NCBI GenBank assembly: GCA_023244895.1
Contig: JAHFLL010000001.1
Location: 268,009-332,008, forward strand
DNA from: Candidatus Liptonbacteria bacterium
Lineage (GTDB): Bacteria; Patescibacteriota; Minisyncoccia; UBA6257; 2-01-FULL-56-20
Direction: 5' to 3'
Length of the DNA stretch: 64,000 nt
In this document: in pieces, positions 3,206 through 57,516 of the stretch
How positions within the stretch are numbered: position 1 is the first letter of the stretch
How the letters are laid out: each line of letters starts with the position of its first letter
Made by a program: the position numbers and the translations under genes
The notes under the pieces: model-generated
The model's input: the letters and a program-made list of their open reading frames with translations, nothing else
Databases searched by the model: none
What the model was told of the DNA's origin: nothing

Positions 3206-3649
3206 ATGACCAAAGAAGAGCTTTTCCCCAGTAAAATACTGGTCCACACGGATGGTGGTTCGCGAGGTAACCCTGGGCCGGCTGCGATTGGGGTGGTTAT
3301 CGGTGGCAAGGAATACGGCGAATATCTGGGAGTAAAGACTAATAATCAGGCGGAATATCAAGCCGTTGTTTTCGCCTTCAAAAAAATGAAGCAGATTTTG
3401 GGCAAAAAGAAGACCAAGGAAACAGAGGTCCTTTTTAGATTGGACAGTGAATTGGTGGTAAAGCAGATTAACGGGCAATATAAAATATTGGAACCCGATC
3501 TGCAGCCGCTGTTTTTAGAAATTTGGAACGCCCGTTTGGACTTTAAAAAAGTTGAATTCGTGCACGTGCCTCGCGAAGAGAATAAAATAGCGGACAAAAT
3601 TGTTAACCATATTCTAGACCAGGAGAAAAGAACCTCTTATCAGAATTAG
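3206..3649 (+). CDS. rnhA: Ribonuclease HI
   Basis: Motifs TDGGSRGNPGPAA, NNQAEYQA and REENKIAD. Confidence 0.8.
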   Translation: MTKEELFPSKILVHTDGGSRGNPGPAAIGVVIGGKEYGEYLGVKTNNQAEYQAVVFAFKKMKQILGKKKTKETEVLFRLDSELVVKQINGQYKILEPDLQPLFLEIWNARLDFKKVEFVHVPREENKIADKIVNHILDQEKRTSYQN

Positions 3650-3694
3650 GCTGGTGGGAGCGTGTTCTAAAGCGACGTCTTTGCGACAGACTTC

Positions 3695-3726
3695 ATGAAA
3701 CGAAAAGACCCCGCGTGAGCGGGGCT
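3695..3726 (-). terminator. Rho-independent terminator after rnpB
   Basis: Hairpin GACCCCGC-GUGA-GCGGGGUC followed by UCUUUUCGUUU on the minus strand. Confidence 0.55.
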
Positions 3727-4083
3727 TTCGGTAATTCGTAAGCCGGATTCTGTGCCTCCGAAAAATCGGAGCGGTAATCATTTCTCTGGACCCTCGATTA
3801 CTCTCGGGTTCTTGCGGCACAAACCATTGCTTACGCAATGGAGTACGACCTTGCACCCAGTAAGGATTTAGCCGTTTCACTCCTGCTTTTTTGTCCCTAT
3901 GGCAGGATTAAGCCAACTAGCTTGGGATCGGGCTCTCTTGGCTCTTTCGGACCAAGACGTCACTGCTCGCACCTCTCGCATTACTGCGGTCCGCCGTTAG
4001 CGGATACGCTTGTCTCGCGAAGCGAGACTGGTGTCCGGACTTTCCTCTCCTTGAAAAATCAAAGAGCGATTACCTGAATTACG
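3726..4083 (-). ncRNA. rnpB: RNase P RNA (bacterial type A-like)
   Basis: Minus strand carries CR-I GGAAAGUCCGGAC (complement of 4033-4045) and CR-IV ACAGAAUCCGGCUUAC (complement of ~3737-3755). P1 pairs GUAAUUC with GAAUUAC. Ends are approximate. Confidence 0.75.
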
Positions 4084-7964: not shown

Positions 7965-8500
7965 CAACTTGTCTAGTGAAGTCGGGTTCACTAGATATTA
8001 AACGAGAACAGACCGACACGCATCGGGCATGTGGGTCTGTTTCTTCTTGCTACTGCTCTTGCGTCAGAGTCCCAGGAGTCGTCGCACGACTCCGCGAGGA
8101 TCCCCGTCGCCTTTCTGAAAAAACTCGGTTGCCCGGACGGGGAGCTTGTCGTACTCCGCGTAAGACATCGAGCTTGTCATCAGCGTCGGTGTGTCGGGGC
8201 TCTCCGCTTGAACTACGGCGACCACCGTATCTCCGTAGGGTCCGGGCGGCATCCGGTAGTCCACGATTGCGAGCTTGAATGGCTGGCCCGCCGCTACTGC
8301 CTCACGGATCTTGGAGATGGCCTCCGTCGCCCCGCCGGCCGTGACGATCTCGATCTCCGCACCGATGGTCTCGAGAAGTGCCCTCATCCCCACGAGAGCG
8401 ATTGGCGTATCATCTACCACGAGAATGCGTCTTATCATGGTTCCTGCCCCCCCTCTCTCTTCTGGAGGCCATTATATTATCCATGTCTTTTAAGTCAATT
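7965..8500. other. GC-rich island A (about 65% GC), carries the orphan receiver gene
   Basis: Sharp compositional shift relative to flanks. Own SD and terminator (CAGACC...GGTCTG plus U-run). Confidence 0.5.
8064..8438 (-). CDS. Single-domain response regulator (CheY-like receiver), inside GC-rich island A
   Basis: Motifs LVVDD and AIVDYRMP. About 65% GC. SD-like GAGGGGGGG sits upstream of the ATG. Confidence 0.6.
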   Translation of the reverse strand: MIRRILVVDDTPIALVGMRALLETIGAEIEIVTAGGATEAISKIREAVAAGQPFKLAIVDYRMPPGPYGDTVVAVVQAESPDTPTLMTSSMSYAEYDKLPVRATEFFQKGDGDPRGVVRRLLGL

Positions 8501-9382: not shown

Positions 9383-10396
9383 ATGAACGCTAAGGACCTG
9401 GTCCAGTACTTCACGCGCGGACTGAACGGGCTCTATGAGCTCGGAACAACAATCGGGATTGAGGTTGAGACCCAGTTCGTGGATCTGGGTGGTCGTGCCA
9501 TCCGGACGGAAATCGCCCAGCAGATCTTCCGGGGTTTCGTCGCTAGCGGTTGGAGGGTCGTGACGCGCAAGGGCGAGTTGCTGACGGAATTAATCTCTCC
9601 CGGGAATGATAGGTTGCTCTACGAGCTTGGCCGGCACAATTTGGAAATCAGTGCCGCGCCACGTCCCGCCGACGCGGTCGTCCCTGCCGTCCTGCGCTTA
9701 CTGGCGGAACTTTACGGCCAGGCTTGGAACTTGGGCGTTCGTCCGCTTCTTGCTCCGATCTTGGAGACGGAAGAGGACCTCCTGGTCGTGCCGGACGAAC
9801 GGGACGCGCAATGGGTAAGGACAGACGGGCGAAGCGCGCTCAATAATCTAACCAGATGCTCGGCGGTGCAGTTTACTATCGATGTGCCGCTCAAGGACGC
9901 GATACGCTGCGTCAATGTTCTGAACGAGATGAAATACTCCTTCCTGAACGAGTATCCCCAGGAGGAGTTGTGGCGGCGCTATATCAAGGAATCAGCCGCC
10001 ACCTATTCTCCCAGCCGCTACGGCGGTCCGGATCGCTTCGCCGATCTGGATGATTACTGCGCGAAACTGGCCGAGCATGGCGTGGTGCGAGACGGTAGGG
10101 TGGTGCCGTGCGAGTCGGCGGGGGAGGTGGATATCCCGCTCTTCCTGCGTTCAGTCTGGTGGTACTTCAGATTGAAGCGTTATGGTCCGAAGCTTTGCCT
10201 GGAAGTGCGCCCGTTCGCGCGGGGCAGGGATTCGAAAATCCAGGAGGATCTGGATCGGGTGCTGCAAATTCTGGGCATCTCCGGTCGGGAGCGCATGGAG
10301 CGAACGGTCGCCAGCCTTCGGGACAGTCTTGAGACACTGAAGTTCCAGGCGGTCCGCCGGCCCGTGTCTCTCGATTGGCCTTCGGGTGGTCACTAA
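9383..10396 (+). CDS. Carboxylate-amine ligase (GCS2/YbdK-like) family protein, GC-rich island B
   Basis: N-terminal TIGIEVETQFVD resembles the YbdK GIELEMQ motif. About 62% GC. Strong SD GAGGGAGGA 5 nt before the ATG. Confidence 0.4.
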   Translation: MNAKDLVQYFTRGLNGLYELGTTIGIEVETQFVDLGGRAIRTEIAQQIFRGFVASGWRVVTRKGELLTELISPGNDRLLYELGRHNLEISAAPRPADAVVPAVLRLLAELYGQAWNLGVRPLLAPILETEEDLLVVPDERDAQWVRTDGRSALNNLTRCSAVQFTIDVPLKDAIRCVNVLNEMKYSFLNEYPQEELWRRYIKESAATYSPSRYGGPDRFADLDDYCAKLAEHGVVRDGRVVPCESAGEVDIPLFLRSVWWYFRLKRYGPKLCLEVRPFARGRDSKIQEDLDRVLQILGISGRERMERTVASLRDSLETLKFQAVRRPVSLDWPSGGH

Positions 10397-10514: not shown

Positions 10515-11237
10515 TTAAGATTGTTTCTTGAATGCTTCCACGATCTTGTCTAAATCTCCGTCCAAAATCTTCTCTATGTTATGAAACTTTTTACCGATGC
10601 GGTGGTCCGTAATCCTGTCTTCCGGGAAGTTGTAGGTACGAATCTTTTCGGAGCGGTCTGCACTACCAATTTGCTCGTTACGGTTCAGACCTGATTTTTT
10701 TGCCTCTTCTTCCATTTGAGCTTCGTGCAGCTTGGCCCGCAAAATTGTCATGGCGCGTTCGCGGTTGCCATGCTGGGAGCGTTCTACCCGGGAAGATATT
10801 ACGATGCCAGACGGTTTGTGAAGCACGCGTACCGCGCTTTCAATTTTATTCACATTCTGTCCGCCCGGCCCGCCTCCACGCGAGAAAGTTACTTCCAGAT
10901 CGCCTTCGTTTATTTGGACCTCTTTGGCTTCTACCTCCGGCATAATCGCGACGGATGCGGTAGAGGTGTGTACCCGGCCGGCTTTCTCGGTCTTAGGCAC
11001 TCTTTGTACGCGGTGCACGCCGGACTCCTGTTTTAGAGCGTCGTAGCAACCCTCGCCGGATATACCTGCCACAAAAGATTTATATCCGTATAAGGAAGTT
11101 TCGTTACTGTCTATTATGCTAAAGCCCCAGCCGCGCCTTTGGGCATACCTTTGATACATGCGCGCCAAGTCGCCCGCGAAGATGGCGGCTTCGTCTCCGC
11201 CCGCACCGGCTCTGATTTCTAAAATAATCTTATTCAT
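10515..11237 (-). CDS. prfA: Class I peptide chain release factor (RF1-like) lacking N-terminal domain 1
   Basis: GGQ motif SRGGGPGGQNVNK, RVQRVPKTEKAGRVHTS and an RF1-like C-terminus. The protein starts at RF1 domain 2 (ILEIRAGAGGDEA). An in-frame TAA sits 2 codons upstream of the ATG. Confidence 0.75.
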   Translation of the reverse strand: MNKIILEIRAGAGGDEAAIFAGDLARMYQRYAQRRGWGFSIIDSNETSLYGYKSFVAGISGEGCYDALKQESGVHRVQRVPKTEKAGRVHTSTASVAIMPEVEAKEVQINEGDLEVTFSRGGGPGGQNVNKIESAVRVLHKPSGIVISSRVERSQHGNRERAMTILRAKLHEAQMEEEAKKSGLNRNEQIGSADRSEKIRTYNFPEDRITDHRIGKKFHNIEKILDGDLDKIVEAFKKQS

Positions 11238-11246
11238 AGATGTTTA

Positions 11247-11276
11247 TGCAGAGATTCTAACAGAAGGAGTCGGGAG
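11247..11276 (-). promoter_or_regulatory. sigma70-like promoter TTGAAT-17-TAGAAT for the RF gene
   Basis: Minus-strand TTGAATctcccgactccttctgtTAGAAT, followed by a 16 nt leader before the ATG. Confidence 0.5.
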
Positions 11277-11285
11277 ATTCAATCT

Positions 11286-11314
11286 GATTGACTCGTTTTT
11301 GTCTCGGAGGCATA
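11286..11314 (+). promoter_or_regulatory. Divergent promoter TTGACT-17-CATACT for the island C small peptide gene
   Basis: ttgactcgtttttgtctcggaggcatact, back-to-back with the RF promoter. Confidence 0.45.
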
Positions 11315-11337
11315 CTCTTTGTCAGGAGGGCAGGGCG

Positions 11338-11484
11338 ATGATACCTCACCCGGCGGTAGTATTCGGGCTTGATGCTGTTACGGTGCGACAGTTGATCGTG
11401 GCCGGCATCGCGGTCTGCGTCGTGTCCGTCGCCCTCGGAGTCGCGGGCGCGGCCGGACTCGTCTACCTCGTTTCTTTGATCTAG
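11338..11484 (+). CDS. 48-aa hydrophobic (single-TM) peptide, GC-rich island C
   Basis: Peptide MIPHPAVVFGLDAVTVRQLIVAGIAVCVVSVALGVAGAAGLVYLVSLI. SD CAGGAGGG 8 nt upstream. Confidence 0.4.
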   Translation: MIPHPAVVFGLDAVTVRQLIVAGIAVCVVSVALGVAGAAGLVYLVSLI

Positions 11485-11866
11485 AGCTCGGACAGGCGCG
11501 CATGGGGTATCCTACGCGCCACGGGATGTGTGTCCCATCCGGGGCGGGGATGCTCTGGTCGTGCTGTTCAGTGTTGCCTCTGGGTAAGCGGCATGCTTTG
11601 CCGCTCGGTCTTTGGGCAACATTGCTCAGTTGCGGACGACTGGAGCATCTCCGTGTTTTCACAAGTCTTGATTCGGTGGGCGGTCTTGCTACTGGCAGGC
11701 ATCACCGCTTGAGGCGTGTGACCTCAGCCGAATCATGGGGCGCGGTCTGGTGGATTACCCAGGCTAGGCAGGCGGGGCAATGAAGCCAGCCGCGCCCTCT
11801 CATAGCGACCTCCGGAACCTACGGGAACCGGGGGTTTTGACTTATTTAGGGTCATATTCCAGCCAC

Positions 11867-11894
11867 TTGACATGGGCTGTGGATATGCTATAAT
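11867..11894 (+). promoter_or_regulatory. Consensus sigma70 promoter TTGACA-16-TATAAT
   Basis: ttgacatgggctgtggatatgcTATAAT, a perfect match to both hexamers. Confidence 0.6.
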
Positions 11895-11900
11895 GCATCT

Positions 11901-12500
11901 CAAGTGGGCGAGTGGGGATTCTTGGTCGGCGTCGGCTCTACGGAGCTACTGGCCACCTTCCCTCCCGAGCCTGCGGCGCTTTCGCCGCGTCGACTCGAGC
12001 GAGCGGGGGATTTCTTGGGCAGATTCGTCTGACCCACCCCCTCGTCCACAACCCTGCCGGCGGGTTCCACCGGTAATCGTTCTTGCGGGGCACAGCGCCG
12101 TCGGCACCGCGCACCGCCCCAAGACCATACGGGCCTGACCACATGGCCCACATTGGAAGGGAGGAAGAAAGTTCCGAAACCGAGACGTAGACGTTTGTGG
12201 AGGAGGGAAGACCAAATCTACAGATGGGTCTCGGGATGGCTGATCCCCATCCGGACGCGCTTCAAGGGATAAAATCCTAGGGCTAATAACCCGAAGCGTG
12301 AAAGTAGGATCGCAGGTAAGTAGGCGACCCAAAGCAGGGCGCCACCAACGGAGGTAACCACTCGGGAGTTCGCACGACCTTCGGGCCGGCGACGAGACGA
12401 CGGGGCACGCGCGACACGCATCCGCCCCAAACCCGAGAGAGCGATACTTCCAATCGGCGCCCTGCTATAGTCAACGGCCCCAGAGCATCAAAGCTCGGGG
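11901..12500 (+). ncRNA. Candidate GC-rich structured non-coding RNA of unknown family (about 600 nt)
   Basis: Lies downstream of the consensus promoter. No plausible ORF on either strand, only overlapping Arg/Pro-rich artefacts. The 5' GGGGAUUCUUGGUCGGCGUCGG loosely resembles a tmRNA 5' end, but no tag ORF or T-arm was found. Confidence 0.25.
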
Positions 12501-12581
12501 TCGTTTGCGTTTTGGGGATATGGTTCGCCCTCCCTTTCCTTTCCTGCTAGAATAACTTTTACTGGAAGATATAAATAAGCC

Positions 12582-13082
12582 ATGTTGCATAAACGCCCGG
12601 GCGACAAAAATGTTTATTTAAAAGTGGGCGCCTTAGTTCAAAAAAGAGGCGAGCTTTTACTAATCAAGGAGCGGAGTAATTGGAAAAAGAAATATCTTTG
12701 GAACACCATCAAGGGTAGTTTCGAGGGGGGAAAAGACAAAACCATAATGGCCGCGGTAGCACGGGAAGCCTGGGAAGAGGCGCGGGTTAAGATAAAAATC
12801 ACCCATCTCCAAAGCGTGAGTCATGCATATCAATATCAGAAAACTTTTATTCAATTCAATTTTGTGGCGGAACTTGTAAGTGGTGACGCAAGACTGCCGC
12901 TTCCAAAAGAGCAGCGTCTTTTAGATGAAGACATAGTTGAGGTGCGCTGGTTTAGTAGAAAGGAGGTTCAGAAACTGAAGGCCAGGGACATGATTAATAA
13001 CCGTGCCTGGGTTGCGGTTCAGGATTGGCTGGCTGGCAAGAGATTTCCCTTGGTCGCCATCCGAGAGTTGAATAAGCTTTAA
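12582..13082 (+). CDS. NUDIX-like hydrolase
   Basis: Degenerate Nudix box GSFEGGKDKTIMAAVAREAWEEARV. Confidence 0.45.
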   Translation: MLHKRPGDKNVYLKVGALVQKRGELLLIKERSNWKKKYLWNTIKGSFEGGKDKTIMAAVAREAWEEARVKIKITHLQSVSHAYQYQKTFIQFNFVAELVSGDARLPLPKEQRLLDEDIVEVRWFSRKEVQKLKARDMINNRAWVAVQDWLAGKRFPLVAIRELNKL

Positions 13083-13083
13083 G

Positions 13084-14079
13084 ATGAAGAGCCCTTTAGT
13101 CAGCAGAATTTTAAAGAAGCTCGCCAAGCGGGCGGGCGTAAAAGTTAATCTGGAGCCGAACTGGGGTTTCGTTGGCCAGGTGGTTTTACCAGATGGTAGG
13201 AAAAGATATTTTAGAAATACTAGTTTAGATTTGAATCCGCTGGGCGCGTCGGAAGTTGCAAGAGATAAAGACTACTCCAATTATTTCATGGGTAAGATGG
13301 GCTACCCCATTGTACCCGGGAAATCTTTCTTTTCGGATAAGTTGTCTACCGCCTTAAAATCTAAACGAAATATAGATGCGGGCTGGCGTTACGCTCAAAA
13401 AATAGGTTTGCCGGTTATCGTAAAGCCAAACAGCCGCAGTCAGGGCGTGGGCGTGAGTAAGGTTTCAAACAAAAAAGATTTTTACGCCGCTGCTAAGTTT
13501 GTTTTTAAAAAAGACAACGTGATGCTGGTGCAGCGCGCGCTTACGGGCAAGGATTATCGCATCGTGGTTTTAGATAAGGAAGTCATCTCCGCTTACGAGC
13601 GCCTGCCGCTTACGGTTGTGGGGGACGGCAAAAGTAGTATTTCTAAACTACTGGGCTTGCTACAAAAGAAATTTACGAGGGAGGGGAGAGACACCATGAT
13701 TAATCCGGAAGATTTTCGGATTAAGGCCAAGCTTCGGAGGCAGGGGCTAAAAATGAATTTTGTACCCAAGAAAAATGAGAAAATAACTTTATTGGACAAT
13801 GCCAACCTATCGGCTGGGGGCATGGCGCTCGATGTCACCGAAATTATTCATCCGGGTTTTAAGAAAATTGCGATTAAGCTCACCCGGGATATGGGCCTGC
13901 GCTATTGCGGAGTGGATTTGATGGTGGTGGGTGACATAGCTAAAGCTCCTCTAAAATACTGGGTGCTGGAGATAAACGCGGCAGCAGGATTGGATCACTA
14001 TGTTTCTTTGGGTAAAAAACAAGCTCGCATTGTGAATGACCTGTATCTCAAAGTATTGCGCGCGATGAAAAAATCCTAA
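13084..14079 (+). CDS. ATP-grasp family ligase (RimK/GshB/cyanophycin-synthetase-like)
   Basis: Motifs NLSAGG, VIVKPNSRSQGVGV and DYRIVVLD, typical of the ATP-grasp fold. Confidence 0.55.
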   Translation: MKSPLVSRILKKLAKRAGVKVNLEPNWGFVGQVVLPDGRKRYFRNTSLDLNPLGASEVARDKDYSNYFMGKMGYPIVPGKSFFSDKLSTALKSKRNIDAGWRYAQKIGLPVIVKPNSRSQGVGVSKVSNKKDFYAAAKFVFKKDNVMLVQRALTGKDYRIVVLDKEVISAYERLPLTVVGDGKSSISKLLGLLQKKFTREGRDTMINPEDFRIKAKLRRQGLKMNFVPKKNEKITLLDNANLSAGGMALDVTEIIHPGFKKIAIKLTRDMGLRYCGVDLMVVGDIAKAPLKYWVLEINAAAGLDHYVSLGKKQARIVNDLYLKVLRAMKKS

Positions 14080-14474: not shown

Positions 14475-14726
14475 CTACTGGATCGCGCTCAGGATGGCAT
14501 CCAGGTCGACTGGCCGCATAGAGAGCAGATCGTTGCACGTGGGGTGGGTCCGATGGGCGTTTGCCGCGCACTCAATGCGGACCCCGACCGCGCCCGCCAT
14601 AACCCGGGTGCCGTCCTTCCTGATGAGGTAGACGGCAGTTTCGTCGCCGTCTATCCCGACGACGAGAGCTGCGACTGGGCCACCAGCCACGGCCTCCACA
14701 TCCGTACGACTCACGGTCATGTCCAT
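14475..14726 (-). CDS. 83-aa hypothetical protein, GC-rich island D
   Basis: SD AGGAGG 6 nt upstream. Own promoter-like TTGATT-17-TAATCT. Terminator hairpin CCGCGCCG...CGGCGCGG plus U-run. Confidence 0.4.
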   Translation of the reverse strand: MDMTVSRTDVEAVAGGPVAALVVGIDGDETAVYLIRKDGTRVMAGAVGVRIECAANAHRTHPTCNDLLSMRPVDLDAILSAIQ

Positions 14727-15471: not shown

Positions 15472-17009
<1,538 letters not shown>

Positions 17010-17111
17010 GTCGAATATTTTTCTTTTGAAAAATATGGTGCGTAAGCATTTCAGTCATTTGGGCAGCTAGAAAACTCTGATTTAAAAAGGGACCGATTGG
17101 TCCGTGGAAAG

Positions 17112-21973: not shown

Positions 21974-22183
21974 ATGGCGAAACAGTGGAAACTGTCTGCG
22001 GATGGAATGCCGCAGAGGCCCGCTCGGCCCCGCAGACCGGATGCGCCCGAAGTCCCCGCGACCCTAGGTGGCAGCTACCTCGCTTCCACCGCAGGCCTCG
22101 GAACCACCAGTCCTCCGCCGAAGTTGCGAGGACGCGCACGATACGGTAAAGGCGCGTCATTCCGAGGGTGGGAGGCGCAGTAG
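21974..22183 (+). CDS. 69-aa Pro/Arg-rich small protein, GC-rich island E (tentative)
   Basis: SD AGAGGTG 5 nt before the ATG. Promoter-like TTGAAT-16-TAGATT at ~21929. Terminator at 22201-22233. Composition is low-complexity, so it may instead be an ncRNA. Confidence 0.25.
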   Translation: MAKQWKLSADGMPQRPARPRRPDAPEVPATLGGSYLASTAGLGTTSPPPKLRGRARYGKGASFRGWEAQ

Positions 22184-28116: not shown

Positions 28117-29004
28117 TTAGGGGTCGGGTATATACGTCCCGCAGTTTGGACATTTGTACCCGTGCCCATTGCGGTACATGACCGCGTCGCAATCATCGCA
28201 CTTCCTATCTCCGTGCACGGGCTCTTTCTCTCCGTTTACGCCCGCGCAGAAACGAGCTTCGGGAGACAGGAATTCGATCGCCAGCCACCGGAAGACGTAG
28301 TCCACGATGGACTTCGCGAACCGAATCTTCGGATGTCTGGTCATCCCCGACGGTTCGAAACGCATGTGGCTGAACCTGTCTACCAGCGTCTCGAGAGGTA
28401 CGCCGTACTGCAGGGCAATTGTGATTGCACTGGCAAACGCGTCCGCGAAGCCCGAGATCATCGAGTCCCCGTTGGCCATCACGAGGAACAAGTCGGCGGG
28501 CTTGCCGTCTTCGTATCGCCCGACGGTTACGTAGCCCTGGTGGCCACCGATGTCGAACTTGTGGGAGAGGGCGCGTCTGTCTTCAGGTGGTCTGCGGCGC
28601 TCAACATCCATCCGTCTGGATGCCTTGGCGAGATCGCCAAACTTCAGATCCAGCCACCGGAAGATGTAGTCCGCGATGGATTTTGCGAATCCAATTCGCG
28701 GATGCTTGGTCATCCCGGATGGCTCGAAGCGCATGTGGCTGAACCTGTCTACCAGCGTCTCGAGAGGGACGCCGTACTGTAGGCAGTACGACACCGCCCG
28801 CGCGAATGCGTCCGCGAAGCCGGAGAGGGTTGACCCCTCCTTAGCCATCACGAGGAACAGCTCTCCGAGAGTGCCGTCCTCGTAGAAGCCTACCGTGATG
28901 TAGACTTTGTGCCCACCGATTTTAACTCGGTGCACGAGCGCGTTGCGCTCGTCCGGTAGCGTCCGCCGGAGGGGCGGGTTTACTAACGAGCTGCTAGCGC
29001 TCAT
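28117..29004 (-). CDS. Tandem-duplicated (~130 aa x2) domain protein resembling the class II ribonucleotide reductase C-terminal (TSCPD-like) domain, with C-terminal zinc ribbon. GC-rich island F.
   Basis: Two repeats share ...GGH.GY.TVG.YEDG...LFLVMA...SGFADAFA.A....LQYGVPLETLVDRFSHMRFEPSGMT.HP.I.FAKSI.DY.FRWL. The tail carries CDDCD...CPNCG. The antisense 241-aa ORF is rejected. Confidence 0.4.
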   Translation of the reverse strand: MSASSSLVNPPLRRTLPDERNALVHRVKIGGHKVYITVGFYEDGTLGELFLVMAKEGSTLSGFADAFARAVSYCLQYGVPLETLVDRFSHMRFEPSGMTKHPRIGFAKSIADYIFRWLDLKFGDLAKASRRMDVERRRPPEDRRALSHKFDIGGHQGYVTVGRYEDGKPADLFLVMANGDSMISGFADAFASAITIALQYGVPLETLVDRFSHMRFEPSGMTRHPKIRFAKSIVDYVFRWLAIEFLSPEARFCAGVNGEKEPVHGDRKCDDCDAVMYRNGHGYKCPNCGTYIPDP

Positions 29005-55029: not shown

Positions 55030-56869
55030 TATGAAAAAAATAATTAGTCTTACTCCGGTCTTGGTGCTGTCTTTAGGGTTAATGATCAGCTCCGCGATAG
55101 TCGCTTTTGCGCAGGTTTCTGTGACCGCGACTCCGGCAGGAGTAACAGTGGGGGCAGCTCCGGCGGGGGTAATTTTCCCGATAGCGGAACTTGGTAATTG
55201 TAAAAATCAGGGTGACTGCAAGTCTTATTGTAATAAGAAAGAAAATATTCAGGCCTGCGTCGGTTATGCCGAGAAAAACGGCATGATGTCCGCGCAAGAT
55301 GCCGCCCAGGCGCGCGAGTTCGCGGACGCGTTAGCAGGGGAAGCACCGGGTGGGTGTCAAGATAAAAAGACCTGCGAAAAGTATTGCGCGGATATTTCTC
55401 ATTTGGATGAGTGCGTGGCTTTCGCGGAAAAGCATAATTTTGTGGACAAGGGCGACTTGGCGGTAGCTAAAAATATCGCCAAAGCGTTAAAGAGCGGCAA
55501 GAAGCTGCCAGGCGGATGCAGCAGCCAGGCTTCTTGTAACAACTACTGCGAGAATACCGAGCACGCGGAAGAGTGTATCTCTTTCGCGGAGGGAACGGGA
55601 ATTCTCTCAGACGCGGATTTAGCAGAAGCTAAGAAGGTTCTGCCTCTCATAAAGGCGGGCAAGGCGCCGGGCGGGTGTAAAACTAAGACGGAATGTAAGG
55701 CCTACTGCGAAGCGGATGGTCATTTTGAGGAGTGTATCTCTTTCGCGGAGGAGGCTGGCTTTGTGGATAAAGAGGAAGCTGTGATGGCTCGTAAAACCGG
55801 AGGTAAGGGACCGGGTGGGTGCAAGTCTAAGGCTGCTTGCGAGGACTACTGCAATAAATCGGAAAATGCCGCCACCTGTTTTAATTTCGCCAAAGAGAAA
55901 GGACTTCTTTCCGAGAAAGAGGTAAAAGAAATAGAAGATGGTATGGGTCGTTTGCGCTCGGGATTAAGCCAGATGCCGCCCGAGATGGTGGATTGCTTGA
56001 AAGAAGGTTTGGGCGCGGATTCGGTTTCTAAAATTGAAGCCGGGACGTTAATTCCGGGTCCGAAAGTTGGCGAAATGGTTAAGGCTTGCGTTAGTAAATC
56101 TCTGCCCAAATTAAAAGAGAAGATGAATTCTGCCATGAAGATGGCGACGCCGGAAGTAAAGGCGTGTTTGGAGCAGGGCGGAATTAATGAGGCGGAGTTA
56201 GAAAAAATACAGAACGGCGAGGCGCCTAGCCCGAGCCTAGGAGACGTGATGAAGAAATGTTTCAACGTCTTGAAGAAAGAGGGGCTAGATAAAGCTCGGG
56301 CGGGTCTGGCTAAAATGCCGCCCCAGATGCGCCAGTGCGTGGAAGATAAACTGGGTGCGGATGTTTTACGTAAGATAGCGAATGGCGAAGATGTGGAGGC
56401 TGGCGCGGAAATGGGGGAGGCGTTTGAGTCTTGCGTGCAAAATGCGGCTGGAGCCGCCGGGGAACAGTTCAAGAACGCACAAATTCCAGCCGGGGCTAAA
56501 AAGTGCATTGAAGATAAGCTGGGCATGGATGTTCAGAGCGCGGTAAATGCCGGAAAGATAAGCGGACCGGAAGAGGTTCAAAAATTGATAATGGAGTGTA
56601 TGAAGGGGGCTATCCCGGGCGGAGCACCTAGTGGTGCGGGTGGTCCTCCGGATGGTACCCGAATGGGTCCTCCAGCAGGGACAGATATGGGTCCACCGCC
56701 CGGCATGGGTATGGGTGGTCCGGTTCCAGCTCCGGGAGGTCCTGGTGCGGGTGGTCCGCCTGCGGGAGGTGGCGGTCCGGACTGCTCTCAGTTTGCATCC
56801 GCTCCATCTTGCGACTATGTCCCAGCCGGTCAGCCCCAGGAGATGTGCAAGAAGTGCAGGGGACAATAA
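55019..56869 (+). CDS. Secreted modular Cys-rich repeat protein with Gly/Pro-rich C-terminal tail
   Basis: Signal peptide. Six ~45-aa modules (PGGC..K..C..YC......EC..FAE..G). Three or four second-type modules (MPP.M..C.E..LGAD). Poly-G/P tail ending in C-rich CSQFASAPSCD...CKKCRGQ. Confidence 0.5.
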   Translation: MENNMKKIISLTPVLVLSLGLMISSAIVAFAQVSVTATPAGVTVGAAPAGVIFPIAELGNCKNQGDCKSYCNKKENIQACVGYAEKNGMMSAQDAAQAREFADALAGEAPGGCQDKKTCEKYCADISHLDECVAFAEKHNFVDKGDLAVAKNIAKALKSGKKLPGGCSSQASCNNYCENTEHAEECISFAEGTGILSDADLAEAKKVLPLIKAGKAPGGCKTKTECKAYCEADGHFEECISFAEEAGFVDKEEAVMARKTGGKGPGGCKSKAACEDYCNKSENAATCFNFAKEKGLLSEKEVKEIEDGMGRLRSGLSQMPPEMVDCLKEGLGADSVSKIEAGTLIPGPKVGEMVKACVSKSLPKLKEKMNSAMKMATPEVKACLEQGGINEAELEKIQNGEAPSPSLGDVMKKCFNVLKKEGLDKARAGLAKMPPQMRQCVEDKLGADVLRKIANGEDVEAGAEMGEAFESCVQNAAGAAGEQFKNAQIPAGAKKCIEDKLGMDVQSAVNAGKISGPEEVQKLIMECMKGAIPGGAPSGAGGPPDGTRMGPPAGTDMGPPPGMGMGGPVPAPGGPGAGGPPAGGGGPDCSQFASAPSCDYVPAGQPQEMCKKCRGQ

Positions 56870-56957
56870 CTAGTAACCAGTAGTTAGTAGATAGAAGTTA
56901 GAAGTTAGAAGATAGAATGTAGAAGTTGGAATAAAGAGAGGGGACGGGAATGAGTAA

Positions 56958-56990
56958 TGGCCGAGCGCGATGTTTTGCGCTCGGCCATTG
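56958..56990. terminator. Bidirectional hairpin terminator
   Basis: GGCCGAGCGC-GATGTTTT-GCGCTCGGCC. Confidence 0.5.
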
Positions 56991-57012
56991 CCGTTCTCTT
57001 GCCGTCTTCCGT

Positions 57013-57516
57013 TTACCGCTGCTCGGCTGCGACAGGCGGCCAAGCGGGCGGGACGACCGGACGGACGGGCCGACCGGCTTCTTCCGCCAGGTAGTCCTTG
57101 AAGCTGATTCGACCGTCCTGAGCGGACGAGCGTCGCAGAGCAAAGTCGTACTCGCGCGCCCAGTCTACGACGGCGAAGAACTTGGCGGTGGCAGCCTTGA
57201 ATCTGGATTCGTAGGACCTGAGGTTGTCCTCCAGGGACTGGGTGTCCCAGATTTCCGACTCTGCCGCCGCGCGAAGCCGCTTCTGGAGGAGGCCGATGCC
57301 CTTACTCCAGGCCTCACACTCGCGTGCGAGCTTGACGAGTCTCGCGTCCATGTCCTCGTCCGAGAGGAGTTGGTGCACCACCGCCATGGTCTTCTTGATG
57401 AACCGACTACGCACCGCGCTGGCCGCAATGGACCAGGTTATGGCGCCGGTCAAGATGGAGAAAAAGACAAGGAGCGCCAGCTGAACCTCACGCGTGATGT
57501 CCATATCCAAGCTCAT
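57013..57516 (-). CDS. 167-aa membrane-anchored coiled-coil protein, GC-rich island G
   Basis: N-terminal TM, then charged helical region. SD CGGGGGT 5 nt upstream. About 62% GC. Confidence 0.4.
   Translation of the reverse strand: MSLDMDITREVQLALLVFFSILTGAITWSIAASAVRSRFIKKTMAVVHQLLSDEDMDARLVKLARECEAWSKGIGLLQKRLRAAAESEIWDTQSLEDNLRSYESRFKAATAKFFAVVDWAREYDFALRRSSAQDGRISFKDYLAEEAGRPVRPVVPPAWPPVAAEQR

Follow-up and report, generated by a model that had tools for sequence, protein, structure and literature searches.

Candidatus Liptonbacteria is a small-genome groundwater bacterium of the Patescibacteria (Candidate Phyla Radiation, CPR). In the 64,000-nucleotide (nt) stretch of its DNA analysed here (contig JAHFLL010000001.1, positions 268,009 to 332,008, hereafter the window), a gene-free gap of 1344 nt (11238–12581) lies between a release-factor-1-like (RF1-like) gene of 240 amino acids (10515–11237, minus strand) and a NUDIX gene (12582–13082, plus strand). 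Positions 11901–12515 of this gap, read on the plus strand, probably specify a stand-alone structured non-coding RNA (ncRNA) of about 615 nt, which is predicted to be strongly transcribed and would represent a family not yet described. This assignment draws on the folding energy of the region, a homologue in a second genome (L006), the helices that the two RNAs have in common and the null result of a coding test. None of the gene callers placed a gene in the RNA region, and the copies of the locus in ENA (ERZ27279977) and Logan (SRR14366791, SRR14366796) are identical.

Transcription signals and composition of the RNA region

Just upstream of the RNA, at 11867–11894 on the plus strand, lies a sigma-70-type promoter, TTGACA-16-TATAAT with a TG extension (TGnTATAAT), that matches the consensus at 12 of 12 positions, as the first-pass annotation of this DNA had recognized. 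It is the sole perfect match when both strands of the window are scanned, where about 0.02 such matches per 64 kb would be expected by chance. Three other promoters with at most one mismatch are present in the window, upstream of the RNase P RNA (3727–4082), of a tRNA-Leu (17985) and of a GC-rich response-regulator-like open reading frame (ORF); two of the four perfect or near-consensus promoters in 64 kb therefore drive RNase P RNA or tRNA, and one drives this RNA. The RNase P RNA and tRNA genes also resemble the present gene in their 16–17-nt spacers and their own terminators, but they differ from it in GC content (51–54%, against 62%) and in being universal rather than confined to a narrow lineage. 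The promoter is homologous in two related lineages, L006 and L090, in which the spacer motif TGTGG...TGCTAWAATG is kept.

The start of the RNA was placed 7–8 nt past the −10 hexamer, and its end at the U-run of an intrinsic terminator (12476–12515, plus strand), in which a stem at 12476–12502 (−22 kcal/mol) is followed by GUUUGCGUUUUGG. This terminator is missed by a simple scan because of a bulge and an interrupted U-run; L006 has an equivalent hairpin (−21 kcal/mol) and tail. The plus strand was assigned from the orientation of both signals and from the G-U pairs, which fall on that strand. Thus, a promoter and an intrinsic terminator of its own, as expected of a structured ncRNA gene, are found on one strand, and both are kept in L006. 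The consensus promoter, of the stable-RNA type, would start transcription, the RNA's own terminator would end it, and 11901–12515 would be neither an mRNA nor the leader of the downstream gene.

The GC content of 11901–12520 is 61.9%, compared with 48% for the window, 52% for the 16S rRNA and 51% for the RNase P RNA; the figure of about 65% given in the first-pass annotation holds in sub-windows but not for the whole region. The high GC content, which had been read there as a sign of structured RNA, is not diagnostic alone, since several protein-coding islands here are equally GC-rich. When compared with dinucleotide shuffles, the region has a lower minimum free energy on both strands, with z = −5.6 for the plus strand and z = −3.6 for the minus strand. 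The earlier impression of some 600 nt with no credible ORF was also correct, as all six frames contain stops (2–8 per frame) and no ORF of the region has a Pfam or NCBIfam match.

The L006 homologue and the predicted architecture

A protein-anchored search over one genome per species (185,579 species genomes) yielded 80 loci with the RF1-like gene and its surroundings; only the closest of them, L006 (JAZDLT010000064.1, a Liptonbacteria metagenome-assembled genome), contains a sequence similar to the GC-rich island. The L006 RNA is 708 nt long (L006 2779–3486, minus strand), with the RF1-like gene on one side and a convergent rpmE (L31) gene on the other. The two RNAs have a series of blocks in common, several of them 8–11 nt long, namely the 5′ CAAGUGGG(A)CGAG, CCUUCCC, ACCGCCCC, GGCUGAUCCCC, AGGGAUAA, AACCCGAA, AAAGUAGGAUC, GGGCGCC, UCGGCGCCC and the terminator with its tail; outside these blocks, MAFFT aligns them at about 54% identity. 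Between the two genomes, the RF1-like genes share 92% identity in protein and 77.5% in DNA. Their silent sites are heavily diverged, and the identical intergenic blocks therefore imply selection.

Comparison with L006 also allows the coding potential to be checked. A frameshift-corrected coding gene spanning the region, which the first-pass annotation had named as a finding that would speak against an RNA, was not detected on either strand: when the best frame was chosen block by block in the window–L006 alignment (and hence frameshifts were tolerated), with column-shuffled alignments as the null, there was no excess of amino-acid similarity (z = 0.3 and 0.07), although the RF1-like gene gave z = 19.4 as a positive control in the identical test. 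The indels that separate the two RNAs have lengths of 1, 17, 48, 8, 37, 9, 2, 1, 1, 6, 6 and 27, mostly not multiples of three.

Nine helices of the two RNAs were aligned by hand with the invariant blocks as anchors. Fifty-eight of the 59 pairs are canonical in both RNAs and one is broken; 12 have changed on both sides and 9 on one side by way of G-U. When the 3′ partner was slid by 1–3 nt as a control, only 14–26 canonical pairs and 1–2 double changes were left. These counts are suggestive of a conserved RNA structure; since they come from only two homologous sequences, they permit no statistical covariation test (R-scape) and carry no formal significance.

The 5′ domain (11904–12049, plus strand) is closed by a helix between 11904–11912 and 12041–12049 (GUGGGCGAG / CUCGUCCAC), so that the 5′ end of the RNA pairs with an internal CUCG..CCAC segment (RNA positions 141–149) and not with the 3′ end. 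Equivalent 5′-end helices are found at RNA positions 4–14/187–197 in L006 and 4–11/68–75 in L090. Within the domain lie hairpin P1 (11924–11929/11949–11954), with one compensatory and three one-sided changes relative to L006, and the conserved CCUUCCC (11956–11962).

The central part begins with helix H5 (12180–12186/12228–12234, plus strand), the apical extension of which is variable; of its seven pairs, one is compensatory, three have changed on one side and one is broken in L006. It is followed on the same strand by hairpin H6 (12235–12251) with the invariant 7-nt loop CUGAUCC (12240–12246), where three of the five stem pairs have changed on both sides around an identical loop, and by a three-way junction (12256–12300). 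The closing stem of the junction (12256–12263/12293–12300) contains four compensatory pairs out of eight, and its two arms, GGGAU-AAA-AUCCU (12266–12278) and GGG-CUAAUAA-CCC (12280–12292), are nearly invariant. Immediately after it comes the invariant AAAGUAGGAUC (12301–12312, plus strand), whose GGAUCG (12307–12312; GGAUCA in L006) is complementary to UGAUCC of the H6 loop (12241–12246) over six pairs; as the end pair, L006 has U-A where the window has U-G. We propose that this loop and the GGAUC sequence form a pseudoknot, a prediction made from complementarity. The conserved core would then comprise the CUGAUCC-loop hairpin, the three-way junction and the segment with GGAUC pairing to the loop, flanked by the 5′ domain with its 5′-terminal helix and by a 3′ domain with a GC-rich long-range helix.

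This 3′ domain (12333–12466, plus strand) is closed by helix H10, an inverted repeat (I8) of 11 pairs between 12333–12343 and 12456–12466 (AGCAGGGCGCC / GGCGCCCUGCU), three of which are compensatory. It encloses a conserved GAGAC and the CGCGCGAC hairpin region; its inner helices are analogous in both RNAs, with an ambiguous alignment. The two RNAs score 89 and 93 bits with a covariance model of the core (R1), which covers H6 and the three-way junction; over 654 kb of related loci, this model found nothing credible beyond them.

Known RNA families, distribution and alternative explanations

The first-pass annotation had suggested an uncharacterized structured ncRNA and recommended an Infernal scan against Rfam. 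As checked by cmscan with all 4227 Rfam 15 families at the gathering threshold, the window, L006 and L090 regions have no family match, and at E ≤ 10 all three give only chance-level matches to unrelated small families, four of them in the window region. Together with the compensatory changes in the L006 homologue and the lack of a coding signal, this agrees with that suggestion. Less fortunate was the loose likeness to the 5′ acceptor/D region of transfer-messenger RNA (tmRNA) seen in GGGGATTCTTGGTCGGCGTCGG, which is located at 11914–11935. A tmRNA has a 5′/3′ acceptor stem, a T-arm GGUUCRANUCC before the 3′ CCA and a tag frame with a resume codon and a stop. The present RNA resembles it in being a strongly expressed stable RNA (expression here is predicted) of a few hundred nt with a G-rich 5′ end, but ARAGORN found no tmRNA in the window or the related loci, no tmRNA model matched at E ≤ 10, the 5′ end pairs internally and the 3′ end is a terminator hairpin instead of an acceptor stem. 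A tmRNA identity was rejected, as there is no tRNA-like domain, no 5′/3′ acceptor pairing and, as had already been remarked of the tag ORF and T-arm, neither a T-arm nor a conserved tag frame.

The closest counterparts in general character are the large "ornate" bacterial ncRNAs OLE, ROOL, GOLLD, HEARO and raiA, Rfam families with little or no known function, although their covariance models do not match even at E ≤ 10. Like these, the present RNA has about 600 nt, a stand-alone gene, a multi-domain, heavily paired fold with no associated reading frame, and a position in a long GC-rich intergenic region of a lower-GC genome. It differs in its host, which belongs to the Patescibacteria rather than to Firmicutes, phage or the rumen, in its occurrence in two genomes rather than hundreds, and in having no tRNA, prophage or partner-protein gene nearby. 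OLE, ROOL and GOLLD form RNA-only multimers or bind specific partner proteins. By analogy with other large bacterial ncRNAs, we infer that the RNA would act in trans in its folded form, a scaffold or protein-partner role being the most plausible; the GAUC palindrome in the invariant loop is the sole hint toward assembly into multimers.

Three further candidates were dropped. Group II introns are recognized by a domain V hairpin with an AGC triad, a 5′ GUGYG and a domain VI with a bulged A; neither Intron_gpII nor group-II-D1D4 matched at E ≤ 10, and an ORF-less group II intron would be bordered by exon flanks, not by its own promoter and terminator. A stranded rRNA leader was rejected on account of the 16S gene having its own promoter, the lack of any rRNA similarity and the compensatory changes, and a CsrB-like GGA sponge because the number of GGA motifs, judged by eye, is about that expected from base composition.

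The RF1-like protein's 90%-identity cluster supplied further lineages. In L090 (1005–1609, minus strand; also in L087 and L091, which are identical to it in this region), a perfect promoter with a homologous spacer is followed by a 5′-terminal CGAG/CUCG helix resembling those of the window and L006 RNAs. The body behind it has 570 nt, no long ORF and a fold z of −6.3; it does not align with the window or L006 and has no Rfam family match. In RF1-like DNA, L090 is nearer to the window and to L006 than these two are to each other, and its RNA has therefore either diverged very fast or been replaced. Also in this L090 region are the palindromic hairpin GGGACCGAUCGGUCCC and an ORF of 27 codons that has a GGAGG-like motif.

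No other homologue than L006 was detected by nhmmer, by block scans with mismatches or by model R1 across about 90 related loci, and lineages L087–L104, reached through the RF1-like, NUDIX, L31, 83-amino-acid, 337-amino-acid and 48-amino-acid proteins, gave no further copy of the RNA; in the closest lineages, L092 and L099–L102, the contigs end short of it. Pattern scans with the conserved blocks returned a single match in the JGI metagenomes (L086) and two in IMG/VR, all by chance, and blastn found no match in phage and plasmid collections. The island is not repeated elsewhere in the 64-kb window. As far as searched, the RNA is confined to a narrow Liptonbacteria lineage.

Several points weigh against a conserved ncRNA. 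The pair support comes from two sequences in a hand-made alignment that was picked because of pairing, and in the window a C-A mismatch interrupts the conserved hairpin CCGGCGGGUUCCACCGG (11957–11973 region). In L090, whose RF1-like gene is not more distant, the promoter and the 5′ helix are retained but the body is unalignable. What L090 and L099 carry here means that the locus is subject to turnover, in keeping with accessory or foreign DNA. With 62% GC, the RNA is like the neighbouring GC-rich coding islands and unlike the rRNA and RNase P RNA (51–52%). Finally, no further member was found in the JGI metagenomes, the 185,579 species genomes, phages, plasmids or viral contigs.

The RNA is part of a GC-rich, fast-changing and compositionally distinct genome region, and a mobile or acquired origin is therefore kept as the main rival, or complement, of a lineage-specific ncRNA. 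The RNA would then travel with a GC-rich island that is mobile or was acquired horizontally (phage, plasmid or element), would be of use to that element and not to the cell, and would be swapped between lineages at a hot spot beside the RF1-like and rRNA genes; we regard this as rather unlikely, and it overlaps with the preferred reading, a structured ncRNA being assumed in both. Every sampled lineage differs at the locus: the window has an ORF, a middle element, the RNA and the NUDIX gene, L006 a different upstream unit and the homologous RNA, L090 the unalignable RNA, and L099, right before the ATP-grasp gene, the end of a GC-rich ORF with a similar terminator tail, and no such RNA and no NUDIX, while in more distant relatives a 16S rRNA gene, divergent from the RF1-like gene, sits directly at the RNA position. 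The islands have 60–66% GC against 48% for the genome, the NUDIX protein has no close homologue, and, by RF1-like DNA, no pair of genomes is more distant than the two that carry the RNA. On the other hand, no integrase, transposase, repeats or tRNA target lie beside the island, the phage, plasmid and viral collections have no match, and the promoter is kept in three lineages.

A more speculative extension, which we hold to be doubtful, is that the promoter and the short 5′ stem make up an "expression slot", kept beside the RF1-like gene in a narrow Liptonbacteria clade, for lineage-specific, GC-rich and strongly folded RNAs of 570–710 nt. These could be large RNAs of a new class, possibly self-assembling, horizontally acquired and exchanged and with an episymbiotic role. 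The window and L006 RNAs would form one family and the L090 RNA another. A GAUC palindrome lies in the invariant apical loop, and at a comparable place in L090 there is a palindromic hairpin centred on GAUC.

It is improbable that the region is decaying foreign or pseudogenized DNA behind a strong promoter, with a functionless fold that is a by-product of high GC. The composition shared with the GC-rich coding islands, the unalignable L090 body, the narrow distribution and the stability of GC-rich sequence on both strands (minus-strand z = −3.6) would suit such a history. However, it does not account for the 12 compensatory pairs between invariant blocks in spite of heavily diverged silent sites, or for the conserved terminator; there is no residual coding signal, and GC content is controlled for by the dinucleotide shuffles.

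The RNA ends 66 nt before the start codon of the NUDIX gene, on the same strand, and its terminator could attenuate, so that a cis-acting, giant riboswitch-like leader of the NUDIX gene and the ATP-grasp gene behind it (13084–14079) might be imagined. We consider this very unlikely, since L006 has no NUDIX gene downstream and the NUDIX gene has no close homologue anywhere. The L006 RNA is followed by the convergent rpmE and the L090 slot by a convergent ORF of 265 amino acids, L099 has the ATP-grasp gene with neither RNA nor NUDIX, no riboswitch model matches, and a full terminator precedes the NUDIX gene.

Still less probable is a highly divergent version of a universal stable RNA (tmRNA, signal recognition particle (SRP) RNA, 6S RNA or RNase P RNA). 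The strong stable-RNA-type promoter and the G-rich 5′ end would be in keeping with one, and CPR stable RNAs do diverge, the RNase P RNA here scoring 103 bits against a threshold of 100. Yet ARAGORN and all Rfam models (E ≤ 10) fail in three lineages, 5′/3′ end pairing, a T-arm and a conserved tag frame are missing, the RNase P RNA is already accounted for at 3727–4082, the 615 nt are far above the length of 6S or SRP RNA, and the RNA is absent from the locus in about 80 related genomes. The weakest proposal of all, a protein-coding gene on either strand that is hidden by frameshifts or an unusual start, can point to a minus-strand frame open for 172 codons and to short peptides similar in the translated comparison with L006 (DPTF/DPTL, RILSL/GILSL), but these peptides are the reverse complements of invariant RNA blocks whose conserved nucleotides change frame from block to block, and coding of the minus-strand frame was rejected by the frameshift-tolerant test (z = 0.07 to 0.3, where a real gene reaches 19), as is any such gene by the indel lengths and the lack of family matches and gene-caller predictions.

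The surrounding locus and significance

In the left part of the island, a weak promoter-like site, TTGACT-17-CATACT (11288–11316, plus strand; 9/12), lies at the start of an upstream transcription unit; the relative L092 shares its TTGACT...GGCATACTCT. Behind it is a hydrophobic ORF of 48 codons (11338–11484, plus strand) with AGGAGG 8 nt upstream, which the first-pass annotation had taken for a peptide gene with a Shine-Dalgarno (SD) sequence. Both ORF and motif are there, but the ORF has no Pfam or NCBIfam match, no tblastn homologue in about 100 related loci and, among 5.8 billion proteins, no match other than itself, and it is absent from L092, the closest lineage with sequence at this place. 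It is an orphan and probably not a conserved gene. The motif is no evidence of translation either, because the 3′ end of the 16S rRNA (16985–17012), ...GCGGAAGCUGUGCGUGGACCAAUUAAAUUG (...GUGCGUGGACCAAUUAAAU), lacks the CCUCC anti-SD, as it does in L013 and L063; upstream of 53 long ORFs, SD-like motifs are no commoner (13%) than in the background (16%). As a short, single-helix hydrophobic ORF beside a structured RNA and terminators, it recalls Type I toxins (Hok, Fst, TisB-like), from which it differs in having no homologue, no identifiable antisense RNA, no counterpart in relatives and no family match, and the resemblance is only one of size and hydrophobicity.

Downstream of this ORF, a long imperfect hairpin (inverted repeat I2; arms 11545–11562/11636–11653) followed by UGUUUUCAC forms a terminator-like feature at 11545–11662 on the plus strand; it is conserved neither in L006 nor in L090. 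Positions 11669–11800 (plus strand) hold a second structured element, some 130 nt in size and made up of a branched hairpin and a long one. It is about 87–88% identical to L092, where the flanks are unalignable; almost all of its 40 predicted pairs are kept, with one compensatory and three one-sided changes, its fold z is −3.9, and its U-G pairs point to the plus strand. No Rfam family matches it. With the hairpin 11807–11836 and its UUUUGACUUAUUU run (11807–11848, plus strand) as a terminator-like end, 11669–11848 may be a separate small RNA. The SRR14366796 assembly breaks at 11822–11851, just 5′ of the strong promoter, where contigs L005 and L003 overlap by 30 nt; this may be a strain-level variant junction or merely a coverage gap.

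On the other side of the RNA, a pyrimidine tract, CGCCCUCCCUUUCCUUUCCU, lies directly 3′ of the terminator (within 12516–12581) and is complementary to a purine tract, AAGGGAGGAAGAA, inside the RNA (12157–12169; inverted repeat I12). In L006, two more near-consensus promoters are found on the RNA strand (regions 2415–2775 and 3581–3805, minus strand): the one at 3805 is that of a unit of some 185 nt, which lies upstream of the RNA, has a terminator of its own and is homologous to the L090 upstream unit, and the one at 2775 is just past the RNA terminator, facing the 3′ end of rpmE.

Among the neighbouring genes, the RF1-like protein lacks the N-terminal domain and covers positions 105–340 of the 347 in the prfA profile, and this short form is kept in all related Paceibacteria-type genomes fetched (about 85 related loci). 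A GC-rich ORF of 337 amino acids (9383–10396) has no family match and appears, by eye, to be of the glutamate-cysteine-ligase type; with the ATP-grasp gene, whose best NCBIfam matches are cyanophycin or glutathione synthetase-type ligases, it could form a small peptide-ligase module. Further islands of 60–69% GC lie at 8064–8438, 9383–10396, 14475–14726, about 21998–22176, 28400–28946 and 56624–57435. Some of the GC-rich islands are protein-coding, with the response-regulator-like ORF, the 337-amino-acid ORF and an 83-amino-acid ORF, and some are missing from close relatives or differ there, suggestive of an accessory gene pool with a composition of its own.

Taken together, the RNA is a well-delimited candidate rather than a discovery, and its value is limited by a distribution over two genomes and the lack of a functional handle. 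The lack of the anti-SD in the 16S rRNA bears on gene calling in the genomes of this clade. Patescibacteria genomes are tiny and tightly packed, and a 1.3-kb non-coding stretch with the strongest promoter of the window is therefore unlikely to be idle. To our knowledge, almost no ncRNAs beyond the universal ones are known in these bacteria, and in the literature on large or structured ncRNAs in Patescibacteria we found nothing further that bears on such an RNA. Unusual biochemistry has been found time and again in large bacterial RNAs of such size, and the RNA at 11901–12515 would, if the reading given here is true, be a new large structured RNA family from the Patescibacteria.

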